NCBI GenBank assembly: GCA_964403605.1
Contig: CAYOGR010000001.1
Span: forward strand, 1 to 49,572
Reading direction: 5' to 3'
Length of the DNA: 49,572 nt
Origin: an uncultured Chthoniobacter sp.
GTDB taxonomy: Bacteria; Verrucomicrobiota; Verrucomicrobiia; Chthoniobacterales; Terrimicrobiaceae
Both the position numbers and the translations under genes were made by a program. The notes under the pieces were generated by a model that ran no database searches, was not told where the DNA came from, and saw nothing but the letters and a program-made list of their open reading frames with translations. The stretch's first letter is position 1. Each line of letters opens with the position of its first letter. Shown piece after piece: positions 12,040 through 41,237 of this stretch.

Positions 12040-13067
12040 AGAACCTTCAAGCGCGTCAGATCCTGGGAATCGACCACACCAATGGGGTGGCTGTTTTCAT
12101 CGAGAACGACCAGATCGTCGATGCGGTGGCGTTCGAGGATTTGGAGCACCTCCGCCGCCAGCTTGTCGCCTTGGATCGTGATTGGTTTGAGCGTCATGAA
12201 ATCCCCCACGGGCCGCGTTCCGATGTGGGGATCCTCGGGAAAATGCCGCGCGAAGTCGCCGTGGGTGAAGATGCCGGCGAGCGAACCGTCCCCATGGACC
12301 ACCACAGCGGCGCCGGCGCGATGGGAGGTCATTGCCTGGATCGCCTCCAACACCGTGGCTGACGGCGAAATGATCGCGAGATCGTCCACGGGACGCATGA
12401 TTTGCCGCACCTTGAGAAGAAGGGACCGGCCAAGGCTTCCGCCGGGATGGAATTTCGCGAAGTCCTCCTTCCGGAATCCACGGCTCTCGAGCAGAACCAT
12501 CGCCAGCGCATCGCCAAGAACCAGCATCGCCGTGGTGCTGGAGGTCGGAGCGAGGTTGAGCGGACAGGCCTCCTGCGAGACGGAGACATCGAGCACGACC
12601 GCGGCCGATTTCGCGAGGGTGGAAGCGGTGTTTCCCGTCATGGCGATCACGGGCAATCCGAACCGGACGATGGCGGGTAAAATGGAAAGAAGTTCCTGGG
12701 TTTCTCCGCTATGGCTGAGGGCGAGAACGACATCCCCTTCCGCGACGATTCCGAGGTCGCCATGGAGGGCGTTGAGGGAATTCAGGACGACCGCTGTGGA
12801 GCCGGTGCTGGTGAGGGTCGCCGCGATTTTTTCACCGATGTGACCCGATTTTCCAACACCGAGGACGACGACCTTGTTACGGCGTTCGACGGCCGCCTTG
12901 ATGAGATCCACGGCTTGGATGAAACGCTCATCGAGCCGCGCGGCGACAGCCGAGGTTTCCGCGATTTCGGTTTCAAAGACGCGCCGGGCGCGCTCGAGAT
13001 AATCCATGGCGGGGATCATGGGGGAACCGCCTTGCCTCGCGCAAGGCCCGAGAGGCGGGACTACCAA
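12036..13067 (-). CDS. kpsF: Arabinose-5-phosphate isomerase KpsF/GutQ (SIS domain plus tandem CBS)
   Basis: VVLGVGKSGHIGEKIAATLTSTGSTAV (SIS) followed by two CBS-like repeats. The likely true start is internal (MIPAMDY at 13019). Confidence 0.9.
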   Translation of the reverse strand: MVVPPLGPCARQGGSPMIPAMDYLERARRVFETEIAETSAVAARLDERFIQAVDLIKAAVERRNKVVVLGVGKSGHIGEKIAATLTSTGSTAVVLNSLNALHGDLGIVAEGDVVLALSHSGETQELLSILPAIVRFGLPVIAMTGNTASTLAKSAAVVLDVSVSQEACPLNLAPTSSTTAMLVLGDALAMVLLESRGFRKEDFAKFHPGGSLGRSLLLKVRQIMRPVDDLAIISPSATVLEAIQAMTSHRAGAAVVVHGDGSLAGIFTHGDFARHFPEDPHIGTRPVGDFMTLKPITIQGDKLAAEVLQILERHRIDDLVVLDENSHPIGVVDSQDLTRLKVL

Positions 13068-32377: not shown

Positions 32378-33784
32378 TCAACCTGTGGTGGCGAGGTTGT
32401 CGGCGATTTCCTCGGCGGGATAACTCCAGATTTCCGAAAGCGTGGGGTGGTAGTGCGGGATGGAGGAGAATTCGCGGACAGTGGCGCGGTAGTGCATTGC
32501 CACAACGACTTCGTGAATCAACTCCGAGGCCTCAGGGCCGACGACGGAGGCGCCAAGGATTTCGCCGGAATCCCGGCGGGCGAGGAGTTTCACGAACCCC
32601 TCGGTTTCACCCATGACGAGGGATTTGCCATGATCGTTGAATGGGTAGCTGGCGGCGAGAAATTCGACGCCGGCGGCTCGGAGTTCGGCCTCCGTTGCGC
32701 CTGCCGTGGCAAGCTGGGGCTCGGTAAAAACCGCAAACAGTTTGAGCCGGTAATCCATCTCGCGGAGAGCCTCCACGCTGCGACCTAGTTTAACCGCCGC
32801 GTTGTGGGCCGCGATTTCGCCCTGCTGGATCGCGATGTGGACGACTTCCAGACCTCCACAAACATCCCCGGCGGCGAAAACATGGGGTTCCGAGGTCGAT
32901 TGGTCGGCATGGACCGAGATTCGTCCATGGGAACTCGCCAGGCCAAGGGGCTCCAATCCTTCGAGACGCGGCTTGCGCCCCAGAGCGTTGAGAACGCGTG
33001 CGGCTTCGAGATGTTTGATCTCCGAACCGTGCTCGAAGGAAACCCGCGCGTGGACCGTGTCGTCGGAGACATGGAGCAGCCCGGTGTCGGTAAAGATGTC
33101 GATGCCATCGCGGCGCATGGCCTCCTCGAGGGCCATGGCCACATCGGGATCGACGGATTTCAAAATCCGGGAACTGCGCTGGACAATCGTCACTCTGGAT
33201 CCGAAGGCTCGGCAGTAGCTGGCCATTTCCAGGGCCACAGGCCCCGCGCCCAGAATGATGAGGGATTCGGGGATGCGCTCAAGGTCGAGGAGTTCGTCGC
33301 TGGTGAGGCATCGCGATTCCGCCAACCCGGGCACCTGGGGAAAGGCGATCTCGGAGCCCGTGGCGATCAGAAAAGTCCTCGCGCTCAGCGTGGAGGTTTG
33401 CCCGTCCGGCGCATGGATGCGGATCGAGTGGGCATCCAGGAACTCGGCCCTCCCCCGCAGGAAAGTGAATTTCCCCGACTCCAACTGCCCCCGACGGTAG
33501 TCGGCAAATTCGGCGACGAGGCGTTTTTTTCGGGCAATGATCGCGGAGGCGTTGAATTCCGGCGTTCCGCACGAGAGGCCAAATTCCCCCGCCTTTTTCA
33601 AAATGCGGAACCGGTGGGCGGATTCGAGAAGCGTCTTGCTGGGCATGCAGCCGCGAAGAATGCAAAGTCCACCGATCTCCGTGCCGCCTTCGACAACGAC
33701 TGTTTTAAGTCCAAGACCGACCGCCGTGCGGGCCCCGGCGTATCCCGCGCTACCTCCCCCGATCACCGCAAAATCGTAGTCCAT
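32378..33784 (-). CDS. Flavoprotein disulfide reductase (dihydrolipoyl dehydrogenase / mercuric-reductase-like family)
   Basis: FAD motif VIGGGSAGYAG, redox-active disulfide GLCILRGCMPSK, NAD motif ILGAGPVALE, C-terminal His-Glu dyad HYHPTLSE. Confidence 0.85.
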   Translation of the reverse strand: MDYDFAVIGGGSAGYAGARTAVGLGLKTVVVEGGTEIGGLCILRGCMPSKTLLESAHRFRILKKAGEFGLSCGTPEFNASAIIARKKRLVAEFADYRRGQLESGKFTFLRGRAEFLDAHSIRIHAPDGQTSTLSARTFLIATGSEIAFPQVPGLAESRCLTSDELLDLERIPESLIILGAGPVALEMASYCRAFGSRVTIVQRSSRILKSVDPDVAMALEEAMRRDGIDIFTDTGLLHVSDDTVHARVSFEHGSEIKHLEAARVLNALGRKPRLEGLEPLGLASSHGRISVHADQSTSEPHVFAAGDVCGGLEVVHIAIQQGEIAAHNAAVKLGRSVEALREMDYRLKLFAVFTEPQLATAGATEAELRAAGVEFLAASYPFNDHGKSLVMGETEGFVKLLARRDSGEILGASVVGPEASELIHEVVVAMHYRATVREFSSIPHYHPTLSEIWSYPAEEIADNLATTG

Positions 33785-33874: not shown

Positions 33875-35074
33875 ATGAAAACGCCTTTCGATCCGATTCC
33901 CGATGTCCTCTCCGATATTCGCCGGGGGCGCATGGTGATTGTCACCGACGACGCCGACCGCGAAAACGAGGGGGACCTGGTGATGGCGGCCTCGAAAGTG
34001 ACTGCGAACGCGGTGAATTTCATGGCGAAATTCGGCCGCGGGTTGATTTGCGCGCCGATCACCGAGGAGCGTGCCGCGCAGCTCGGCCTGCAACGAATGG
34101 TCGCCAAGAACCGCGAGTTTTTCAAAACCGACTTCACTGTTTCCGTGGATGCGACCCATGGGATCACAACGGGGATCAGCACCAAAGACCGCGCGGCCAC
34201 GATCCGAGTCCTCTCCGATGCCAACACAAAGCCCGGCGACCTGATTCAGCCAGGGCATGTTTTTCCGCTGCAAGCCAAGGCCGGCGGCGTGCTTCGGCGC
34301 GCCGGCCACACCGAGGCGGCGATCGACCTCGCGCGGCTCGCCGGCCTCGATTCCTCCGGCGTGATTTGCGAGATCATGAAGGACGACGGCTCGATGGCCC
34401 GGCTGCCGGACTTGATCAAATTCAAACGCAGGCACGGCCTGAAAATGTGCTCGATCCAGGATCTCATCGCCCACCGCCGCAAGAGCGAGCGTCTCGTGGA
34501 GTGCGAGGAGAAGATCGTGCTGCCCACGGACTACGGGGATTTCAATCTGCATCTCTACCGGTCGCTGCTCGATGACATGCACCACATCGCGTTGGTGAAA
34601 GGAAAGGTCTCCTCCTCCAAACCCGTGTTGGTGCGCGTCCACAGCGAATGCCTCACCGGCGATGTCTTCGGCTCCCGGCGTTGCGACTGCGGCCCCCAGC
34701 TCCAGCAGGCCATGCAGCGCATTCAAAAAGAGGGCGCCGGCGTGCTGCTCTACATGCGGCAGGAGGGCCGTGGAATCGGCCTCGGGCCTAAAATCCGTGC
34801 CTACAAGCTTCAAGAGCAGGGACTGGACACCGTCGAAGCCAACGAGCGCCTGGGATACCCCATGGATCTGCGCGACTACGGCCTTGGCGCCCAAATCCTC
34901 GCCGATCTCGGCATTCACAAAATCCGGCTCCTCACCAACAACCCACGCAAGGTCGTCGGCCTGGAGGCCTACGACATCGAGATTGTCGAGCAACTCCCGA
35001 TCCGCTCGGCGGCGAATCCCCACAACGCCCGGTATCTCGAGACCAAGAGAAAAAAAATGGGCCACAAGCTCTGA
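33875..35074 (+). CDS. ribBA: Bifunctional 3,4-dihydroxy-2-butanone-4-phosphate synthase / GTP cyclohydrolase II
   Basis: DDADRENEGDL and RAGHTEA (RibB), followed by VRVHSECLTGDVFGSRRCDCG and NPRK (RibA). Confidence 0.95.
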   Translation: MKTPFDPIPDVLSDIRRGRMVIVTDDADRENEGDLVMAASKVTANAVNFMAKFGRGLICAPITEERAAQLGLQRMVAKNREFFKTDFTVSVDATHGITTGISTKDRAATIRVLSDANTKPGDLIQPGHVFPLQAKAGGVLRRAGHTEAAIDLARLAGLDSSGVICEIMKDDGSMARLPDLIKFKRRHGLKMCSIQDLIAHRRKSERLVECEEKIVLPTDYGDFNLHLYRSLLDDMHHIALVKGKVSSSKPVLVRVHSECLTGDVFGSRRCDCGPQLQQAMQRIQKEGAGVLLYMRQEGRGIGLGPKIRAYKLQEQGLDTVEANERLGYPMDLRDYGLGAQILADLGIHKIRLLTNNPRKVVGLEAYDIEIVEQLPIRSAANPHNARYLETKRKKMGHKL

Positions 35075-35107: not shown

Positions 35108-35971
35108 CTAGCGGCGCATGACGGGGGATTTGACTTCCAAAGCGATCCGGCGGGCATGGGTGCGCAGGCACGATCTGCCGCGACGGGCGCGCGCCATGAT
35201 TTCCCGGGCCTCACCGGCTCCGCTAATTTCCAGGATCATGGCCCCGCGAAACCCGACTTGCACCAACTCGCGGACAAAGTTCCCCCACTCGATCCTCCCC
35301 TCGCCCGGCGGGAGATGTTCGTCACTGTGGCCTTTGTTGTCGTGCACATGGAGCATCCGGAGGTGGGGGCCGAGTTTGTAAACCAGAGGATAAAGATCGC
35401 CCGCGAGGAAAGCGTGCCCGGTGTCGAGACACGCTCCGACCTCGTTTGTGTCGAGCGCGCCCAGAATCCACACGATGTCGCTGGAACTTCCGAAGAGCAG
35501 GTGGGGAAGCTTGTTTTCAAGAACGCATTGGATGCCCGTTTCGGAGCACCGAACAGCGACGCGATTCAGAACCGAAACGACATTCTCGATCCGGACCATG
35601 CGTTCCTCGCGGGATGGGATGTCTGCATTTTCAGGCCCGGGATGGATGACAAAATAGTGCACGCCGAGCAGCGAGGCCGCATCGACGGCACGGAGGATTT
35701 CGTCGAACGCGTGCTCGCGCGTTCCGAAATCGGGCGATGAGATGTCGATGTCCCTCGCGAACGGGGCATGGAACGAGTAGGCCTCCATGCCCAGCTCCTC
35801 GATGCGGTGCGCGGCCTCGCGAACGGCTGCAAGATTCTTGTAATCGAGATGGGACGGCGAAAAAACCACCTCGATCATGCTGAATCCACTTTCCCGAATG
35901 GCCTCGAGGCACTCGAGAATCGGGGTGTGATGAAAGCAGCCTGTGGAAAGCCCGATCGGCCAACTTGTCAT
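35108..35971 (-). CDS. Xylose-isomerase-like / endonuclease IV-like TIM-barrel protein (AP_endonuc_2 fold)
   Basis: From the ATG at 35971: MTSWPIGLSTGCFHH...FHAP...FVIHPGP...VLEN...VGACLDTGHAFLAG...LHVHDN...DEHLPPGEGRIEW...MILEI. This matches the nine-ligand metal-site pattern shared by Endo IV and sugar isomerases. ATGA overlap with the upstream gene. The track ORF (to 36214) runs into that gene. Confidence 0.85.
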   Translation of the reverse strand: MTSWPIGLSTGCFHHTPILECLEAIRESGFSMIEVVFSPSHLDYKNLAAVREAAHRIEELGMEAYSFHAPFARDIDISSPDFGTREHAFDEILRAVDAASLLGVHYFVIHPGPENADIPSREERMVRIENVVSVLNRVAVRCSETGIQCVLENKLPHLLFGSSSDIVWILGALDTNEVGACLDTGHAFLAGDLYPLVYKLGPHLRMLHVHDNKGHSDEHLPPGEGRIEWGNFVRELVQVGFRGAMILEISGAGEAREIMARARRGRSCLRTHARRIALEVKSPVMRR

Positions 35972-37392
35972 AATCGAAGCTCCAGTTGTTTTGCGGGCTG
36001 GCGGAGCGCGCGGGGTTCGGGCAGCGTTTCCACGCCCGACTCCCGGCCCCGGATACGGGCGAGTTCCCCGTCGAGGCGGGTTTTCGCGGAGGAAAAAATC
36101 CTCACATAGAAATCCGCGCGCATGGCGGGCGAATAGTCGATCCACTGGCGGCCCCAATCGTGGTCGCGCTCGAACTTGGATCGTATCAACCCCGCAATGT
36201 GCCGCGGATGCCAACCAAGCCCGAGAAGGCTCTCGGTGACACTTCGTATCCCGGAGGGTTTCAGCAAAAGATCATTGGGAAACATCAGCGCGTTTCTCGC
36301 CTCCGTCGGAAGGTTGCCAAGCGGGGTGCGGTCATAAGTCGAGGGCCAGCGCTCCGGGGCGTCATGGGTGGCCGAATAGAAGTATTCATGAAATCGACGG
36401 AGGGCGGTGCCACGATACTGCCGGATCAGACTGGCCATGCCGAAAGTCTGATCGGGAATGCGGGTGGAAAGTTGGCCAGCCAACCGCGTGGCGAGCCCAG
36501 GGTCGCGCATGACCACCATTGCTTGTCGAATATCCAAGCCATCCACCGGCACAAAGATGATCGGACCGATCTTGGAAATGTTGTTGCTGCCGACCGCATA
36601 CAACTGCTGCCAGGGCTTGAGATACGCGCTGAAGGGCACCCTCACCGTGCGCGTGTAGAGCGGATCCCCGTATTCGGAGAGATCAATCGATATCATTTCG
36701 CGTCCCCTCCCCGAGGGAGCCACCTCGACGGCTGTGAGTTCGATGGGGATCTCGGACTCCGGGCGCGCCAACTCGATGACGAGGCGTCCGAGGAATTCCA
36801 TCACCAATCCAAGCCCGGCGAAGGCATGGGCGAGCACGGGGTAATCCCGTCCATTCCTGGGACTCGGCGGGAATGGATCCCCGATGAAGGCTTTTTTTCC
36901 CATCCCGGCGAGGGATTCAAACACTTCGGAGGAGCGGTCGATGCGCCAGGCGAAATGGTGGCCACGCCCGCTCAGCACATGCAGGGCCTCAATGCCGTGG
37001 TAATCGAGCACACGCCGGATCGCGCGGGCGACCGGTTCCTGCATGAGGAATGCCCGGGCGGGATCGAGATAGGCCTCGGCGGGAAAATCAAAATTCACAT
37101 ACTCCACATCGAGGTGGGCGATGAGCGATTCGCGATCCCAGAGCGAGCGGCAAATATCCAACCCCTCCTCGAGGCGGTCGAAAAGCTCCTCCGGATTGCG
37201 TGGGGTCCGCGCCGGTTGCCCGACTCCGTCCGCAGTGATGAATTCACAGGTGGCCGCCGCCGGAGTCTCGCCGCCGAGAAATTCCATGATACGGGCGCGC
37301 ACCGCCGGCGAGCGGTAGTATTCGCGATAAGTCTTGAGGATGTCCTGCATGGAACGGCGGTGCGGTTTTTCGTGCGTGCCCGCGGGGGGCAC
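35968..37392 (-). CDS. Uncharacterised 474-aa protein with archaeo-eukaryotic primase (AEP)-like motif series
   Basis: Protein-like composition, unlike the equally long antisense ORF 35986..37422. Ordered motifs: AHLDVEY (D95/E97), LSGRGHHF (S141-H146), ISIDLSEY (D237), VRVPFSAYLK (R251...K259). The start may instead be M15 (37350). Confidence 0.7.
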   Translation of the reverse strand: MPPAGTHEKPHRRSMQDILKTYREYYRSPAVRARIMEFLGGETPAAATCEFITADGVGQPARTPRNPEELFDRLEEGLDICRSLWDRESLIAHLDVEYVNFDFPAEAYLDPARAFLMQEPVARAIRRVLDYHGIEALHVLSGRGHHFAWRIDRSSEVFESLAGMGKKAFIGDPFPPSPRNGRDYPVLAHAFAGLGLVMEFLGRLVIELARPESEIPIELTAVEVAPSGRGREMISIDLSEYGDPLYTRTVRVPFSAYLKPWQQLYAVGSNNISKIGPIIFVPVDGLDIRQAMVVMRDPGLATRLAGQLSTRIPDQTFGMASLIRQYRGTALRRFHEYFYSATHDAPERWPSTYDRTPLGNLPTEARNALMFPNDLLLKPSGIRSVTESLLGLGWHPRHIAGLIRSKFERDHDWGRQWIDYSPAMRADFYVRIFSSAKTRLDGELARIRGRESGVETLPEPRALRQPAKQLELRL

Positions 37393-37418
37393 GCACGAGG
37401 AGGCCGCTCCTTGTTTTT

Positions 37419-37865
37419 TTAACTCACCGGAATTTCCAGTGTCTTGTGCATGGCTCCCTCCCCCTTGGGTAGATGCACTTTCAGGAGGCCATCCTTGAAC
37501 TCGGCGGAGACATTTTTTCGTTCTGTCCCCTCCGGGAGGGTGAAGCTTCGCTCGAAAGCTCCATAATTTCGTTCAATGCGATGGAAGCGGCGACCCGTTT
37601 CCTCCTTCTCCAGCTTGCGTTCTCCGGAGATGCGGATGGAACCGTTCTCCAGCTCCACTTTCACATTCTCCTTCCTCACCTCGGGAAGCTCGGCCTTGAT
37701 GGTGTATTCCTTGTCGCTCTCCTCGACATCCACCAGCGGACACCATTCCGTGCTGGAGATCGGTTCGTCGATCGAGGGCAGCAGTGACCTCGAAAAGAGC
37801 GTGTTCATGCGGTTGGCCATTTGTTCGAACTCCCTTAAGGGATTCCATTTGATCAGTGTATTCAT
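37419..37865 (-). CDS. Small heat-shock protein (Hsp20 / alpha-crystallin family)
   Basis: Alpha-crystallin domain: PLVDVEESDKEYTIKAELPEVRKENVKVELENGSIRISGER...ERNYGAFERSFTLPEG...AEFKDGLLKVHLPK. Confidence 0.95.
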   Translation of the reverse strand: MNTLIKWNPLREFEQMANRMNTLFSRSLLPSIDEPISSTEWCPLVDVEESDKEYTIKAELPEVRKENVKVELENGSIRISGERKLEKEETGRRFHRIERNYGAFERSFTLPEGTERKNVSAEFKDGLLKVHLPKGEGAMHKTLEIPVS

Positions 37866-38019
37866 TGTTGGTTCATGAACCGGCGTTGTTTTGAACGATC
37901 CTCCGAAGCCGGTGTCCGGCGGACCGAATGGGTTCGATTCCGCGGAACCGGAACCACACCCCCACCAGACAGCCTTCCAGAGCCTGCCTCAATAGGGTGT
38001 AGTCCCGACTGCGGCTTGC

Positions 38020-40170
38020 TCAGGGGTTTTTCTGGATGCTGAAAATCGCGGGGGATGTGATCGTCCATCCGCTGGTTCCCAGCTCGAAACTTGGGTTCGC
38101 GACGCGGTTGGCTCCTCCCGCAGTGCCGAGAAAAACCTCGTCCAGATACATCGTGCCACCCGACCCGTCATAGGCGTCGTCGAAGCTCAGCCAAATCCGC
38201 TGGCGGCTCCCCGTGTTGAAAACCGGCGTGGTGAACTTGGTCCAGTTCGAGGTGGCATTGATGCGAATGCCGGAGAGTTTCACGGTCCAGGCCGAGTTGC
38301 CCCACACCTGGAGCTCCACCGAACCGGAGCCCTTCACCCAGACGCTGGCGGTCACATTGGTCCGGGGCGGGACAGGCACGCGCTGGAAGAGATCGTGATA
38401 GGTCGCACTCGGTTGCACTTTCGCCACAGCGGCCCAATTGCCATTGAAAACATTCCCCCCGGTGGGTGGCGTCGCCGTGGGCGACGGACTTGGCGATGGG
38501 GTTGGCGTCACTGTTGGTGTGGGCGTCGCTGTTGGCGTGGGTGTCGCTGTCGGGGTGGGCGTCACTGTTGGCGTGGGCGTCGCTGTAGGGCTGGGTGTCG
38601 GCGTCACCACTCCCGCGTTCAGGATATCGCGAACCTTTGTGACGCTGGCCTGCAAGGCGGCATTGGATTTGAAATCCGTAATGAATTCCCACCAGAAGAC
38701 GCCGCCGATGCTCCCGGCAAAGTCAAAGGCGGCACCATGGTAGATTTCGGAGATGGCCAGCTTGGCGGCGATCGGATCGGTTTGATTGTAGGCCCACCAG
38801 AACCTCTGACCCGGGATCCAGTAGCCGAGTTCACCGATTCCGATTTCCGAGTTCGGAAACTCCGCGCGCATCGTCTTCATCACCTGGTCGAAGGCCATGC
38901 CCATCGGGGCCTGCTCCTGATATTGCGAAAATGTGACGACATCGAGGAGCGACCTTGTCGAGGCAGGCAGGTTGTTCGCTACCCAAGTGAACATGGAATT
39001 CGCCACGGTATCGGTGTTAATCTGCCAAAAGAGCGTCAGGAAGGTGAGCTTGCCCGGGGCGCGGTTGCGAACCTCCTGCGCGGCGTCGGCGATCCGAAGC
39101 GCGATGTCGCTGCTCAGCCAGGTTCCGTTGACTTCGTTGCCGACCTCCCAGGCGTCGATCTGCGGAAAAGCGGTGATGAAATCGATGAAGCGCTGTTTAT
39201 ATTGGGCGCGGGTGTATTGACGGTCGTAGGTGGAATCCACCGGCTGCCCGAGCACTTTGAGCCCCTTGGATTTCGCGTAGTTGATCAGCCCGGTGTAGGG
39301 TGATGGCCCAAGGCCGGCATCGAAAACAACCCGGATCCATCCGAATGGAGAAGTCGTTTTTGCAGCGAGATCCAGGTTCTCCTGGTAGTTCGAAACCGTG
39401 TCGATCGTAAAACCCAGCCATGGCGTGAGGGTCGCCTTGTTGTTCCGGGCGAAAACCGGGCCGTGCTCCTGCAGGAGCGTGTCGTAGGCCACGGCGAGTT
39501 GATCGAGCGCGAGTTGCCCCGCTTTTCCCTTGGCGCTCTCCGGGCTGTAGGCATCGACGCTCGCAAGCTGTGCCGCCGCGGCTTGGTAGGCGGTGTTGAA
39601 CTTTGCGGACGCGACATAACCGGGGCGCGCGGCCAGGGCGGCATCGAGTTTTTTTCGGATGTCGCGGGCGGCCTGGTAGGAGAAATTAACCGTCGCCCCC
39701 GCGCTGAATCCCGCCCCGCCATTATCCAGGATCACCAACCCAAAGCCGTTCGGGAGTGTGGGCCAATTCAAGGCCAGAGCCACCGGGCGGGACGGAATGT
39801 TGAAGGCGAGATTCGCTCCCGAGGTGAAGAGCGGGCCGCTGCTGATCGCCCTCATGTTCTCGGGATCGAGCAGGAAGTCGCTGTTGTAGCCCGCGCCCTC
39901 GTTGTTCGAGATGGTTCTCACCTGGGTGGGCGTGAGGGCGGCTCCGTTCCGATCGAAGAACAGGAGCGTGACCGCTCCGCCGGCCTGGGCTGTTCCCTTG
40001 AGCGTGAACGCCAGCCAGACCGCCACCGCCAGACCCGCAACGAGGGCACCGGGGAGGGCCAAACGCCGGGCATGCGCTTTGGCTCGTTTCAGGATTTTTG
40101 TGCCCAGCGAAACCCGCTCCGGCCCTTCGGGTGCGGGTTGCTGCATTGGTTTGTTTTTTTCTTTGTCCAT
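38020..40170 (-). CDS. Secreted or anchored clan GH-A-like glycoside hydrolase with Pro/Thr linker and C-terminal CBM4/9-like beta-sandwich
   Basis: N-terminal anchor LALPGALVAGLAVAVWLAF. Candidate acid/base motif WEVGNEVNG and nucleophile motif IGIGELGYW. The linker is PTPSPTATPTPTVTPTPTATPTPTATPTPTVTPTPSPSPSPTATP. The C-terminal module ends in MYLDEVFLG. Confidence 0.75.
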   Translation of the reverse strand: MDKEKNKPMQQPAPEGPERVSLGTKILKRAKAHARRLALPGALVAGLAVAVWLAFTLKGTAQAGGAVTLLFFDRNGAALTPTQVRTISNNEGAGYNSDFLLDPENMRAISSGPLFTSGANLAFNIPSRPVALALNWPTLPNGFGLVILDNGGAGFSAGATVNFSYQAARDIRKKLDAALAARPGYVASAKFNTAYQAAAAQLASVDAYSPESAKGKAGQLALDQLAVAYDTLLQEHGPVFARNNKATLTPWLGFTIDTVSNYQENLDLAAKTTSPFGWIRVVFDAGLGPSPYTGLINYAKSKGLKVLGQPVDSTYDRQYTRAQYKQRFIDFITAFPQIDAWEVGNEVNGTWLSSDIALRIADAAQEVRNRAPGKLTFLTLFWQINTDTVANSMFTWVANNLPASTRSLLDVVTFSQYQEQAPMGMAFDQVMKTMRAEFPNSEIGIGELGYWIPGQRFWWAYNQTDPIAAKLAISEIYHGAAFDFAGSIGGVFWWEFITDFKSNAALQASVTKVRDILNAGVVTPTPSPTATPTPTVTPTPTATPTPTATPTPTVTPTPSPSPSPTATPPTGGNVFNGNWAAVAKVQPSATYHDLFQRVPVPPRTNVTASVWVKGSGSVELQVWGNSAWTVKLSGIRINATSNWTKFTTPVFNTGSRQRIWLSFDDAYDGSGGTMYLDEVFLGTAGGANRVANPSFELGTSGWTITSPAIFSIQKNP
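38490..38600 (-). repeat. Coding tandem repeat (about 24-nt period, GGCGTCRCTGTTGGYGTGGG units) encoding the (T/S/A/V)P linker
   Basis: Visible reiteration of ggcgtcactgttgg / ggcgtcgctgttggcgtggg units across 38490-38600, in frame within the GH gene. Confidence 0.8.
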
Positions 40171-40271
40171 GGCCGCAACCTAGAAAGGGCGCGGGATTGC
40201 TCCATGGGGACATCGACCCTCGGCTTTGCACCCCATTGAGAGCCCGTGCGGCACGGAGGTTCGTCTCACCG

Positions 40272-41237
40272 ATGAAAACAAACATTTCGCCCAAGAGTCG
40301 CCAAAACCACCGGACCCATCGAGCGCATGATTTCCTGGCCGCTTTCCTTGTGACTGCGGCTGGGCTCTGGGCGGGCAGTTTGGGCTGCTCAATCGTCGCA
40401 AAACCCGATTCGAGGATCGACGCCGGACTCCGGACATCCTCGCATGTGGCCAAGCCCATCGGCCTCGACGCGAACCCGACCGACGCCCCTGCAATCGACG
40501 CCCGCAGCGGAATCGTGATCGACGCTTTGACCGGTGAGAGTCTCTACGAAAAGGATGCCGACCGCCTCCTGCCGGTGGCCAGCACGCAAAAACTTCTCAC
40601 CGCGCTCGAGGTGATCAATGAGGGCGGACTGGAGCAGGAGGTGACGGTGGGCTTGGGCGCGGCCTTGGAGCCCCCGTCCAAAGTGGGCCTGATCCCGGGA
40701 TCCCGGCACCGAAAGATCGATCTGCTTGGAAGCCTGCTGGTCGCCAGCGCCAACGATGCGGCCAGCGCTCTCGCCACGAACGGAACCGGCTCCTACGAGG
40801 AATTTGTGAAGAACATGAACTTGCGGGCGAAGCGCCTCGGGGCCAGAAACTCCTTGTTCCGGAATCCGCACGGCCTCGACGAACCGGGACAGTATTCCAC
40901 CGCGCGGGATTCCGCGATCATCGCCTACCACGCCTATCGCAGCCCGCTGATCCGGCACTTCGCGGCCCAGCAGTTTTGGACTTTTTCCCATGGGGACGGG
41001 CAAAAAACAGTTCTCGAAAACACAAACGAACTTCTCTGGAACTGGCCACCCTATTTCAACGGACTCAAGGGCGGCTTCACATTCTGGGGAGGAAAATGCC
41101 TGATCGCCTCGGCGAAACACAACGGCAGCGAAATCATCATTGTTCTCCTTGGCAGCACTCCAGAAAGGATATTCGTCGACGCCAAGCGCCTTTTCCATTG
41201 GCATCACGGGAGGTTGAACCACATCGCCGGGCAATGA
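40272..41237 (+). CDS. D-alanyl-D-alanine carboxypeptidase (serine peptidase S11, PBP5/6-like)
   Basis: SxxK (VASTQKLL) and SxN (SANDAA). LKGGFT sits at the KTG position. The N-terminus has a hydrophobic signal/anchor (FLAAFLVTAAGLWAGSLGCS). The ATG at 40272 is chosen within track ORF starting at 40098. Confidence 0.8.
   Translation: MKTNISPKSRQNHRTHRAHDFLAAFLVTAAGLWAGSLGCSIVAKPDSRIDAGLRTSSHVAKPIGLDANPTDAPAIDARSGIVIDALTGESLYEKDADRLLPVASTQKLLTALEVINEGGLEQEVTVGLGAALEPPSKVGLIPGSRHRKIDLLGSLLVASANDAASALATNGTGSYEEFVKNMNLRAKRLGARNSLFRNPHGLDEPGQYSTARDSAIIAYHAYRSPLIRHFAAQQFWTFSHGDGQKTVLENTNELLWNWPPYFNGLKGGFTFWGGKCLIASAKHNGSEIIIVLLGSTPERIFVDAKRLFHWHHGRLNHIAGQ

Follow-up and report, generated by a model that had tools for sequence, protein, structure and literature searches.

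Bacterial archaeo-eukaryotic primases (AEPs) with cellular, non-mobile roles are to our knowledge so far essentially those of the LigD/Prim-PolC group; in LigD, the AEP polymerase (Pol) domain is coupled to a 3'-phosphoesterase (PE) domain. In mycobacterial base excision repair, gap filling by Prim-PolC is most efficient after processing by endonuclease IV (EndoIV) (PMC5663958), and the family survey of bacterial AEPs deals with primases of mobile elements (PMC5862659). Among the TIM barrels of the AP_endonuc_2 superfamily, MJ1311 is listed as a predicted archaeal EndoIV homologue (PMC2770678), and CbiR is a proven phosphodiesterase that acts on the nucleotide loop of cobamides, not on DNA (PMC7733943). 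Full-text literature searches found nothing on an AEP that has a xylose-isomerase-like or EndoIV-like barrel as its partner. Such a pair is described here from a stretch of 49,572 nucleotides of an uncultured Chthoniobacter sp. (contig CAYOGR010000001.1), called the window throughout. It consists of protein X, predicted to belong to a new AEP family, and its obligate partner, a TIM barrel with a metal site of the EndoIV type; coordinates are collected in Table 1. In the clade of the window the pair stands behind a small heat-shock gene (hsp20), which suggests an undescribed module for the processing of DNA damage.

For protein X, searches of Pfam, NCBIfam, PHROGs, PADLOC and the sequences of the PDB gave no match, with the single sequence as well as with a profile, and a Pfam scan of 91 family members gave isolated weak matches only. 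The family comprises more than 1,593 clusters at 90% identity, every one of them unnamed; an exhaustive scan with HMMER yields 649 at 50% identity. The AlphaFold2 model of X, built on 42 homologues, is confident (pLDDT 88, pTM 0.88). In a Foldseek search of this model against the PDB the best 14 matches are all AEPs (probability 0.6-1.0; following matches <0.35), with target-normalised template-modelling (TM) scores of 0.34-0.49, or 0.42-0.49 for the near-full-length ones (ranks 1-9). They include Prim-PolC of M. smegmatis (5op0/6sa0; probability 1.00, E ~7e-3, TM 0.42-0.43), the LigD polymerase domain of M. tuberculosis (2r9l/4mky; probability 0.98-0.99, TM 0.43-0.45) and the CRISPR-associated Prim-Pol (CAPP, 7nqe; TM up to 0.49). 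Among viral models (BFVD), phage primase-helicases and PrimPol N-terminal proteins match the fold best, and the weak matches include a TOTE primase domain. The catalytic core of AEPs is built of an alpha/beta module and a palm like that of the RNA recognition motif. The predicted elements of X (strand 89-100, helix 111-131, hairpin 137-152, helix 184-212, strand 232-237) follow the order of this palm; in the model, motifs I and III lie on the first and the last strand, respectively, and motif II lies in the hairpin.

Published definitions of the AEP motifs are hhhDhD/E for motif I (metal ligands), sxH for motif II (nucleotide binding) and hD/E for motif III (PMC4538821). All three were counted in an alignment of 130 X sequences reaching down to 24% identity. 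In motif I, D95 is kept in 126 sequences (E in three others) and position 97 is E in 96 and D in 30. In motif II, position 141 is S in 67 and T in 61, G142 is found in 121 and G144 in all 130, position 145 is H in 80 and Y in 45, and H146 is found in 124, so that the pattern reads [S/T]G[R/Q]G[H/Y]H. In motif III (I236-D237), the aspartate is present in 130 of 130. These substitutions (E/D, S/T, H/Y) are exactly those that occur among active AEPs. The original prediction had proposed AEP-like motifs in X from its sequence, and both the fold matches and the conservation of the three motifs among the homologues bear it out. Its motif II is present and conserved; the histidine of this motif, which it had placed at position 145, is H146 by the sxH definition, H145 being replaceable by Y.

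A profile comparison points the same way. The X family profile was aligned by hhalign with four PDB sequences of the LigD-Pol family, with 150 column shuffles as control; the score of 32.1 exceeds all shuffles (mean 15.2, sd 2.8, maximum 28.0; P = 0.002), motif I being misaligned. Paired in the alignment are an N-terminal YY helix, SGRGHH with SGSKGLH, IDLS with VDWS, and PFS with PYS; D237 of X falls on D227 of M. tuberculosis LigD-Pol. In this alignment Prim-PolC and LigD-Pol, the best structural neighbours, share with X the YY helix, the PYS/PFS strand and the motifs DxD/E, SGxGxH and hD; like X, they are carried on the chromosome and associated with stress or stationary phase. They differ in showing no significant similarity to X in HMMER and in having no equivalent of its C-terminal helical domain of about 160 residues, which carries four cysteines in most relatives. 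Because no curated AEP model matches it, X is placed in a new, unannotated family inside the AEP superfamily rather than in a described one; by its predicted structure, it is nearest to the bacterial repair polymerases.

The partner of X scores 140 bits against PF01261 (AP_endonuc_2). Its metal ligands were read from a MAFFT alignment of 78 family members with E. coli Nfo (NC_000913) and MJ1311. Eight of them (H110, E152, D183, H186, H208, D217, H219, E248) are invariant in 78/78 and align with Nfo H109, E145, D179, H182, H216, D229, H231 and E261, respectively; the ninth was taken from its motif to be the invariant H68 (SFHAPF), which the MAFFT alignment does not pair with Nfo H69 (PHDSY). 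The nine-ligand EndoIV pattern noticed at the outset is thereby complete. In the alignment from the PDB search, D-tagatose 3-epimerase is without four of the nine ligands (the equivalents of H68, H110, D217 and H219), and for this reason the metal centre is assigned, by its residues, to the phosphoesterase (EndoIV) type and not to the epimerase type. F71 of the HAPF motif is also invariant; counted from the ligand histidine, it pairs with Y72 of Nfo (HDSY), a residue that Nfo inserts into DNA. With Nfo and Apn1 the barrel has in common the TIM fold, the nine metal ligands and the motifs CxDTxHAF and H.[ND][DN]...D.H..GEG. The local resemblance to Nfo first reported is real, VGACLDTGHAFLAG matching VGVCIDTCHAFAAG in E. 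coli nfo. Unlike Nfo, the barrel carries a PPGEGRI.W motif that resembles the ketose epimerases, and no counterpart was identified for the DNA-binding R37.

By overall similarity, the barrel belongs elsewhere. Its best match in the PDB is the uncharacterised MJ1311 (3wqo; E = 1.2e-18), which shares the eight Nfo-type ligands and the HAPF motif that holds the ninth. It reaches 63.2 bits with the CbiR model NF041277 (cut-off 105) and at best 46.5 bits with a model of the ketose-epimerase type (fructoselysine 3-epimerase, cut-off 305); against the remaining Nfo cut-offs (244-376; TIGR00587/PRK01060 test) it scores 25 bits or less. On these scores, the barrel is not an Nfo orthologue, its nearest relatives being MJ1311 and CbiR; no pairing with an AEP is known for either.

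X and the barrel are tied together by gene order. One genome per species was scanned (about 185,000 species genomes), giving 394 X loci, and the neighbourhoods were read at 83 loci. The barrel gene lies directly downstream of X on the same strand, mostly overlapping it, in 77 of the 83; the rest are mostly truncated contigs. The majority of the X loci belong to Verrucomicrobiota; the others come from Planctomycetota (including the cultured Roseiconus nitratireducens JC645), Fibrobacterota, Acidobacteriota, Nitrospirota and Methylomirabilota. In two family members X and barrel are naturally fused (P0127, 747 aa; P0135, 724 aa), with domains in the order of the genes. In the window, the stop codon of X and the start codon of the barrel share the letters ATGA (CGA TTA TGA / ATG ACA, CGATTATGACAAG; barrel ATG at 35971), an overlap by which the barrel is translationally coupled to X. 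From this gene order, X and barrel are read as an obligate pair, and the synteny that the original prediction had suggested surveying extends over six phyla, with occasional fusion. That prediction had also named a non-AEP fold, unconserved motifs, grouping of the barrel with isomerases and an unconserved pair as outcomes that would tell against it; the searches returned an AEP-like fold, conserved motifs, a barrel nearest in sequence to MJ1311 and CbiR, and a conserved pair.

Other architectures occur: one X-family member carries an N-terminal pair of CBS domains (P0233, 612 aa) and another a 125-aa N-terminal extension of unassigned type (P0128, 591 aa). Two copies of X stand on separate contigs (L047, DATDAL010000074; L048, DATDAL010000152) of one Terrimicrobiaceae metagenome-assembled genome; they are either paralogues or a sign of mixed strains in the bin.

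The scattered occurrence of the pair (394 loci in about 185,000 species genomes) might be expected of an anti-phage or conflict system or of mobile-element cargo, and AEP domains are known in conflict systems, the TOTE primase being among the weak viral matches. Neither PADLOC nor PHROGs gave a match, X is without a match in plasmid and phage collections, and no helicase, integrase or toxin is a conserved neighbour in the loci examined. The pair sits instead in a chromosomal housekeeping context that is stable within clades (ribBA, S11 peptidase, prepilin peptidase). In the window, the barrel gene is faced by ribBA (bifunctional DHBP synthase/GTP cyclohydrolase II; 33875-35074, + strand), which converges on its end at a distance of 34 nt and is followed by a pyridine-nucleotide-disulphide oxidoreductase gene (32378-33784, - strand); both are ordinary housekeeping genes and thus speak against a mobile island. 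A role in defence or as mobile cargo is regarded as extremely improbable.

The C-terminal part of X, helical at 316-453 in the predicted model, has a conserved pattern of its own (WHPRH...RSKFERD...W..Y.P..RAD.Y.R.F). Across the family it bears a cysteine cluster, LPPC...DFNCxSxxEKGxCx4-6C, of which three cysteine positions are kept in 80 of 91 representatives and the fourth in 66 of 91. The positions correspond to about residues 364 and 446-460 of the window protein (nt ~36013-36301), which together with its clade is without all four cysteines and has a low-confidence tail instead. Aligned by hhalign with the C-terminal domain (CTD) of human PriL (p58C), three of the four Fe-S cysteines pair (FPPC287, FSC367, HGC384), at a marginal P = 0.012, a score that 1 of 100 shuffles also reached. 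One family member matches PF04104 (DNA_primase_lrg; E = 0.0044) and another RepB_primase_C (E = 0.12); a profile of the C-terminal domain found nothing in the PDB at E <= 10. Single-chain fusions of PriS and PriL exist, for example PolpTN2 (PMC3973330), and the PriL Fe-S domain has relatives in the PriCT domains (PMC5862659). The likeness to the PriL Fe-S domain is a lead, not a finding.

If it were followed, X could be a de novo primase with a PriS-like core and a PriL-CTD-like C-terminus (ancestrally with four cysteines, possibly Fe-S) that, together with the barrel, reprimes or restarts at abasic or blocked sites. The cysteine cluster, its alignment with p58C, the two single-member matches, and the PriS-PriL and PriCT precedents would all fit such an enzyme, and PolpTN2-like chains resemble X in that an AEP domain is followed by a helical C-terminus. 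Those enzymes, however, are replicases of plasmids and mobile elements with helicase partners, whereas X is chromosomal, has a nuclease-type partner and in the window lacks the cysteines altogether. In addition, the PriL similarity is owed in part to the cysteines themselves, genes for a helicase or for replication are absent nearby, and the structures nearest to X are those of repair polymerases and not of PriS. We consider a priming function of this kind unlikely.

The reading to which we give about an even chance is that X and the barrel form a two-enzyme module for end cleaning and gap filling on damaged nucleic acid, most likely DNA. The barrel would act as a metal-dependent phosphoesterase with a trinuclear site of the EndoIV type, incising abasic sites and/or stripping blocks from 3' ends (phosphate, phosphoglycolate, unsaturated aldehyde). 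X, through its intact DxE / sGxGxH / D site, would extend the cleaned 3'-OH and so fill the short gap, probably with a tolerance of ribonucleotides like that of LigD-Pol and Prim-PolC, and the nick would be sealed by a ligase encoded elsewhere. In Terrimicrobiaceae and close Chthoniobacterales, the pair behind hsp20 may be read through at a reduced level in heat stress, to judge from the conserved promoter-like element upstream of hsp20 and from the hairpin described below. Two known arrangements offer a parallel. One is the gap filling by Prim-PolC after EndoIV processing cited above; the other is the LigD multidomain enzyme, in which, too, an AEP polymerase is coupled to a metal-dependent phosphoesterase that cleans 3' ends, as in the fused members of the X family. 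From LigD the pair differs in that the barrel has the TIM and not the LigD PE fold, and in that it is without ligase module and Ku. We infer the repair function, and with it the substrate, the order of the reactions, co-transcription with hsp20 and induction by heat; the fold, the kept motifs, the ligand set, the gene order, the fusions and the translational coupling are results of the analysis.

Several observations count against the module so described. Curated AEP models (Pfam, NCBIfam) give X no match even at E <= 1, and a Foldseek E of only ~7e-3 with TM below 0.5 makes the fold match moderate and not overwhelming. In the hhalign alignment, motif I of LigD (DLDP) is set on a non-conserved LDP of X. 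The N-terminal 5'-phosphate-binding segment of LigD-Pol is without counterpart: the PolDom alignment reaches X only after about 20 residues, and conserved basic residues do not occupy the aligned positions. With the nfo model TIGR00587 the barrel reaches 37.5 bits (cut-off 129.65), just residues 66-191 being aligned; its total score places it nearer to MJ1311, CbiR and the ketose epimerases (39 bits) than to Nfo, at 20 bits. Repair genes, be it for a ligase, Ku, a glycosylase or another enzyme, are not conserved beside X in the 83 loci, so that X, unlike Prim-PolC and LigD-Pol, is not tied to Ku or to an ATP-dependent ligase (LigC/LigD) but has, by sequence, a TIM-barrel phosphoesterase as its partner. 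Finally, in about 34 of the 83 loci, all from the clade of the window, hsp20 immediately precedes X on the same strand, and a strong conserved hairpin stands between the two genes. The alternative position of motif I in X implied by hhalign (L109-D110-P111) was rejected, D110 being D in just 67 of 130 sequences, while D95 and E97 are conserved on a beta-strand.

The first of these points would also fit an X that is not a functional AEP at all, its fold and motifs being convergent or misleading and the protein serving as a scaffold, or in some other chemistry, beside a sugar-metabolising barrel. There is no match to any AEP family at the level of hidden Markov models, the Foldseek E lies above 1e-3, the barrel scores nearer to the ketose 3-epimerases than to Nfo, and sugar or polysaccharide genes stand near some loci. 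These sugar-gene neighbours are not conserved, though, and the barrel has four ligands that are absent from the epimerases. Fourteen consecutive AEP fold matches followed by a sharp fall in probability, the independent matches to viral primases, three catalytic motifs kept throughout the family with the canonical swaps, and an hhalign score above all shuffles likewise make such a misreading of X very unlikely.

The absence of linked DNA-repair genes bears on another explanation, namely that the pair acts on RNA, healing 3' ends and then adding nucleotides under stress, or that it makes or hydrolyses a nucleotide-derived compound. The neighbours that are found belong to stress (hsp20, a universal stress protein, a P-type ATPase) and not to repair, the fusion of X to CBS domains hints at sensing of an adenosine ligand, CbiR as the closest named barrel family acts on the cobamide nucleotide loop (PMC7733943), and AEPs of the LigD type favour ribonucleoside triphosphates (PMC5663958). 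Every characterised AEP, however, builds nucleotide chains on a template or primer of nucleic acid (PMC4538821). No cobamide genes were found in the window or in the related loci, and the barrel misses the CbiR cut-off (63 against 105 bits). The invariant F71 at the position of the DNA-inserting Nfo Y72 also speaks for DNA. Action on RNA or on a small molecule is, on balance, distinctly unlikely.

For the module itself, the link to heat shock is confined to one clade. The hsp20 product is a clear member of its family (PF00011, residues 47-147, 84.4 bits, cut-off 20.8). In the loci with hsp20, X is roughly >=54% identical to the window protein, and hsp20 is found in no more distant lineage. Of the heat-shock-linked three-gene operon in the original prediction, the adjacency of hsp20 holds; its scope shrinks to this clade, with the hairpin in between. 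The hairpin (stem 11-12 bp, GC-rich) occurs in about 33 loci (including L004-L030, L040-L043 and L063). It folds at -40 kcal/mol in a 96-nt context (z = -4.0), and its consensus has nine pairs, two of them with compensatory UA<->CG changes, mostly without a U-tract. It may be an attenuator, an mRNA stabiliser or a terminator without U-tract, and co-transcription of hsp20 and X is plausible from the arrangement of the genes.

At a fixed distance of about 130 nt upstream of the hsp20 ATG, the motif CACC[CT][CT]ATTG[AG], or in looser form CACC[CT][CT]ATT[GT]N, is found in 32 loci, at 581-600 nt before the hsp20 stop, out of 39 matches in total in 1.6 Mb. It resembles the -10 consensus of sigma-32 (CCCCATnT). 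Further copies in the window lie at 40229-40239 (+), 41047-41057 (+) and 12079-12089 (-); these other copies precede genes for an S11 D-Ala-D-Ala carboxypeptidase and a pseudouridine synthase, which leaves assignment to a heat-shock sigma factor unsupported. The motif was also rejected as a general promoter of X, since among the loci without hsp20 just one (L032) has it. Scans around the operon for the CIRCE operator, Rfam families, sigma-70 promoters and terminators returned nothing on the coding strand. The long conserved 5' untranslated region of hsp20 could hold an RNA thermometer, although Rfam found none.

Heat speeds up depurination, and a supply of enzymes for abasic sites would make sense of the position of the pair behind hsp20. 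In its fullest form, this idea makes X and barrel an undescribed self-contained system for abasic sites and blocked 3' ends in the PVC group and other soil and freshwater bacteria: an ancestral AEP with a PriL-like, probably Fe-S domain would prime or fill at sites cut by its EndoIV-type partner, and in Terrimicrobiaceae the system would be wired into the heat-shock response behind hsp20 as one transcription unit. So much taken together is possible but doubtful.

The three - strand genes and the four peptides first quoted for X (LIAHLDVEY, LSGRGHHF, MISIDLS, VRVPFSAYLK) were all recovered from the list of open reading frames (ORFs) at the residues and nucleotides given for them. The distance from the hsp20 stop to the GTG of the X ORF is 26 nt and not 27 nt. 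As this GTG (37392) sits within the 5' arm of the hairpin and most homologues begin at the equivalent of M15 (MQDIL...), the start of X is probably the ATG at 37350, which gives a protein of 460 aa at 68 nt from hsp20; residue numbers follow the GTG start.

Table 1 Features of the hsp20, protein X and TIM-barrel locus in the window. aa, amino acids; nt, nucleotides; ORF, open reading frame.
Feature	Position	Strand	Remarks
hsp20	37419-37865	-	148 aa, small heat-shock protein (alpha-crystallin/Hsp20); ORF list and Pfam
Protein X ORF	35968-37392	-	474 aa from GTG; no family match, AEP-like fold
TIM-barrel gene	35108-35971	-	287 aa, AP_endonuc_2 superfamily, putative EndoIV-type nine-ligand metal site
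Intercistronic hairpin	37370-37398	-	12-bp stem, 5-nt loop; includes GTG at 37392
Promoter-like motif CACCCTATTGA	37989-37999	-	~130 nt upstream of hsp20 ATG
AEP motif I, D95-V-E97	37102-37110	-	hhhDhD/E; predicted beta-strand 89-100
AEP motif II, S141-G-R-G-H-H146	36955-36972	-	sGxGxH / sxH; hairpin between predicted strands 137-140 and 144-152
AEP motif III, D237	36682-36684	-	hD; end of predicted strand 232-237
C-terminal all-helical domain of X (~residues 300-455)	36028-36495	-	Predicted structure and conservation

Beyond the barrel and, in the one clade, hsp20, no neighbour of X is conserved. Lineage-specific neighbours are a prepilin peptidase, an erythromycin esterase, a P-type ATPase, a universal stress protein and a polysaccharide deacetylase. 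In soil Verrucomicrobiota (Udaeobacter-like; L045, L053, L057, L067, L068, L076, L080) a recurrent neighbourhood was seen, with genes for an erythromycin-esterase-like protein, two unnamed proteins (one of them a membrane protein) and an MgtA-like P-type ATPase upstream, and for a polysaccharide deacetylase and a universal stress protein after X and the barrel; it looks like a stress or dormancy island rather than a repair locus. Directly upstream of hsp20 in the window, a protein of 716 aa (38020-40170, - strand) has a long Pro/Thr-rich linker (PTPSPTATPTPT...). It is without Pfam match and is kept at the same position in about nine related loci.

X would be a second chromosomal family of bacterial AEPs, mainly in the poorly studied Verrucomicrobiota and Planctomycetota, and the pair would give a testable biochemical role to proteins under two widespread annotations, 'hypothetical' and 'sugar phosphate isomerase'. 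It also hints at how modules of a polymerase and an end-cleaning enzyme arise repeatedly from different folds. If the link to hsp20 is real, heat stress would be tied to the repair of heat-induced depurination, and the protection of protein and of DNA against heat would, if this is true, be joined in one transcription unit in Terrimicrobiaceae.

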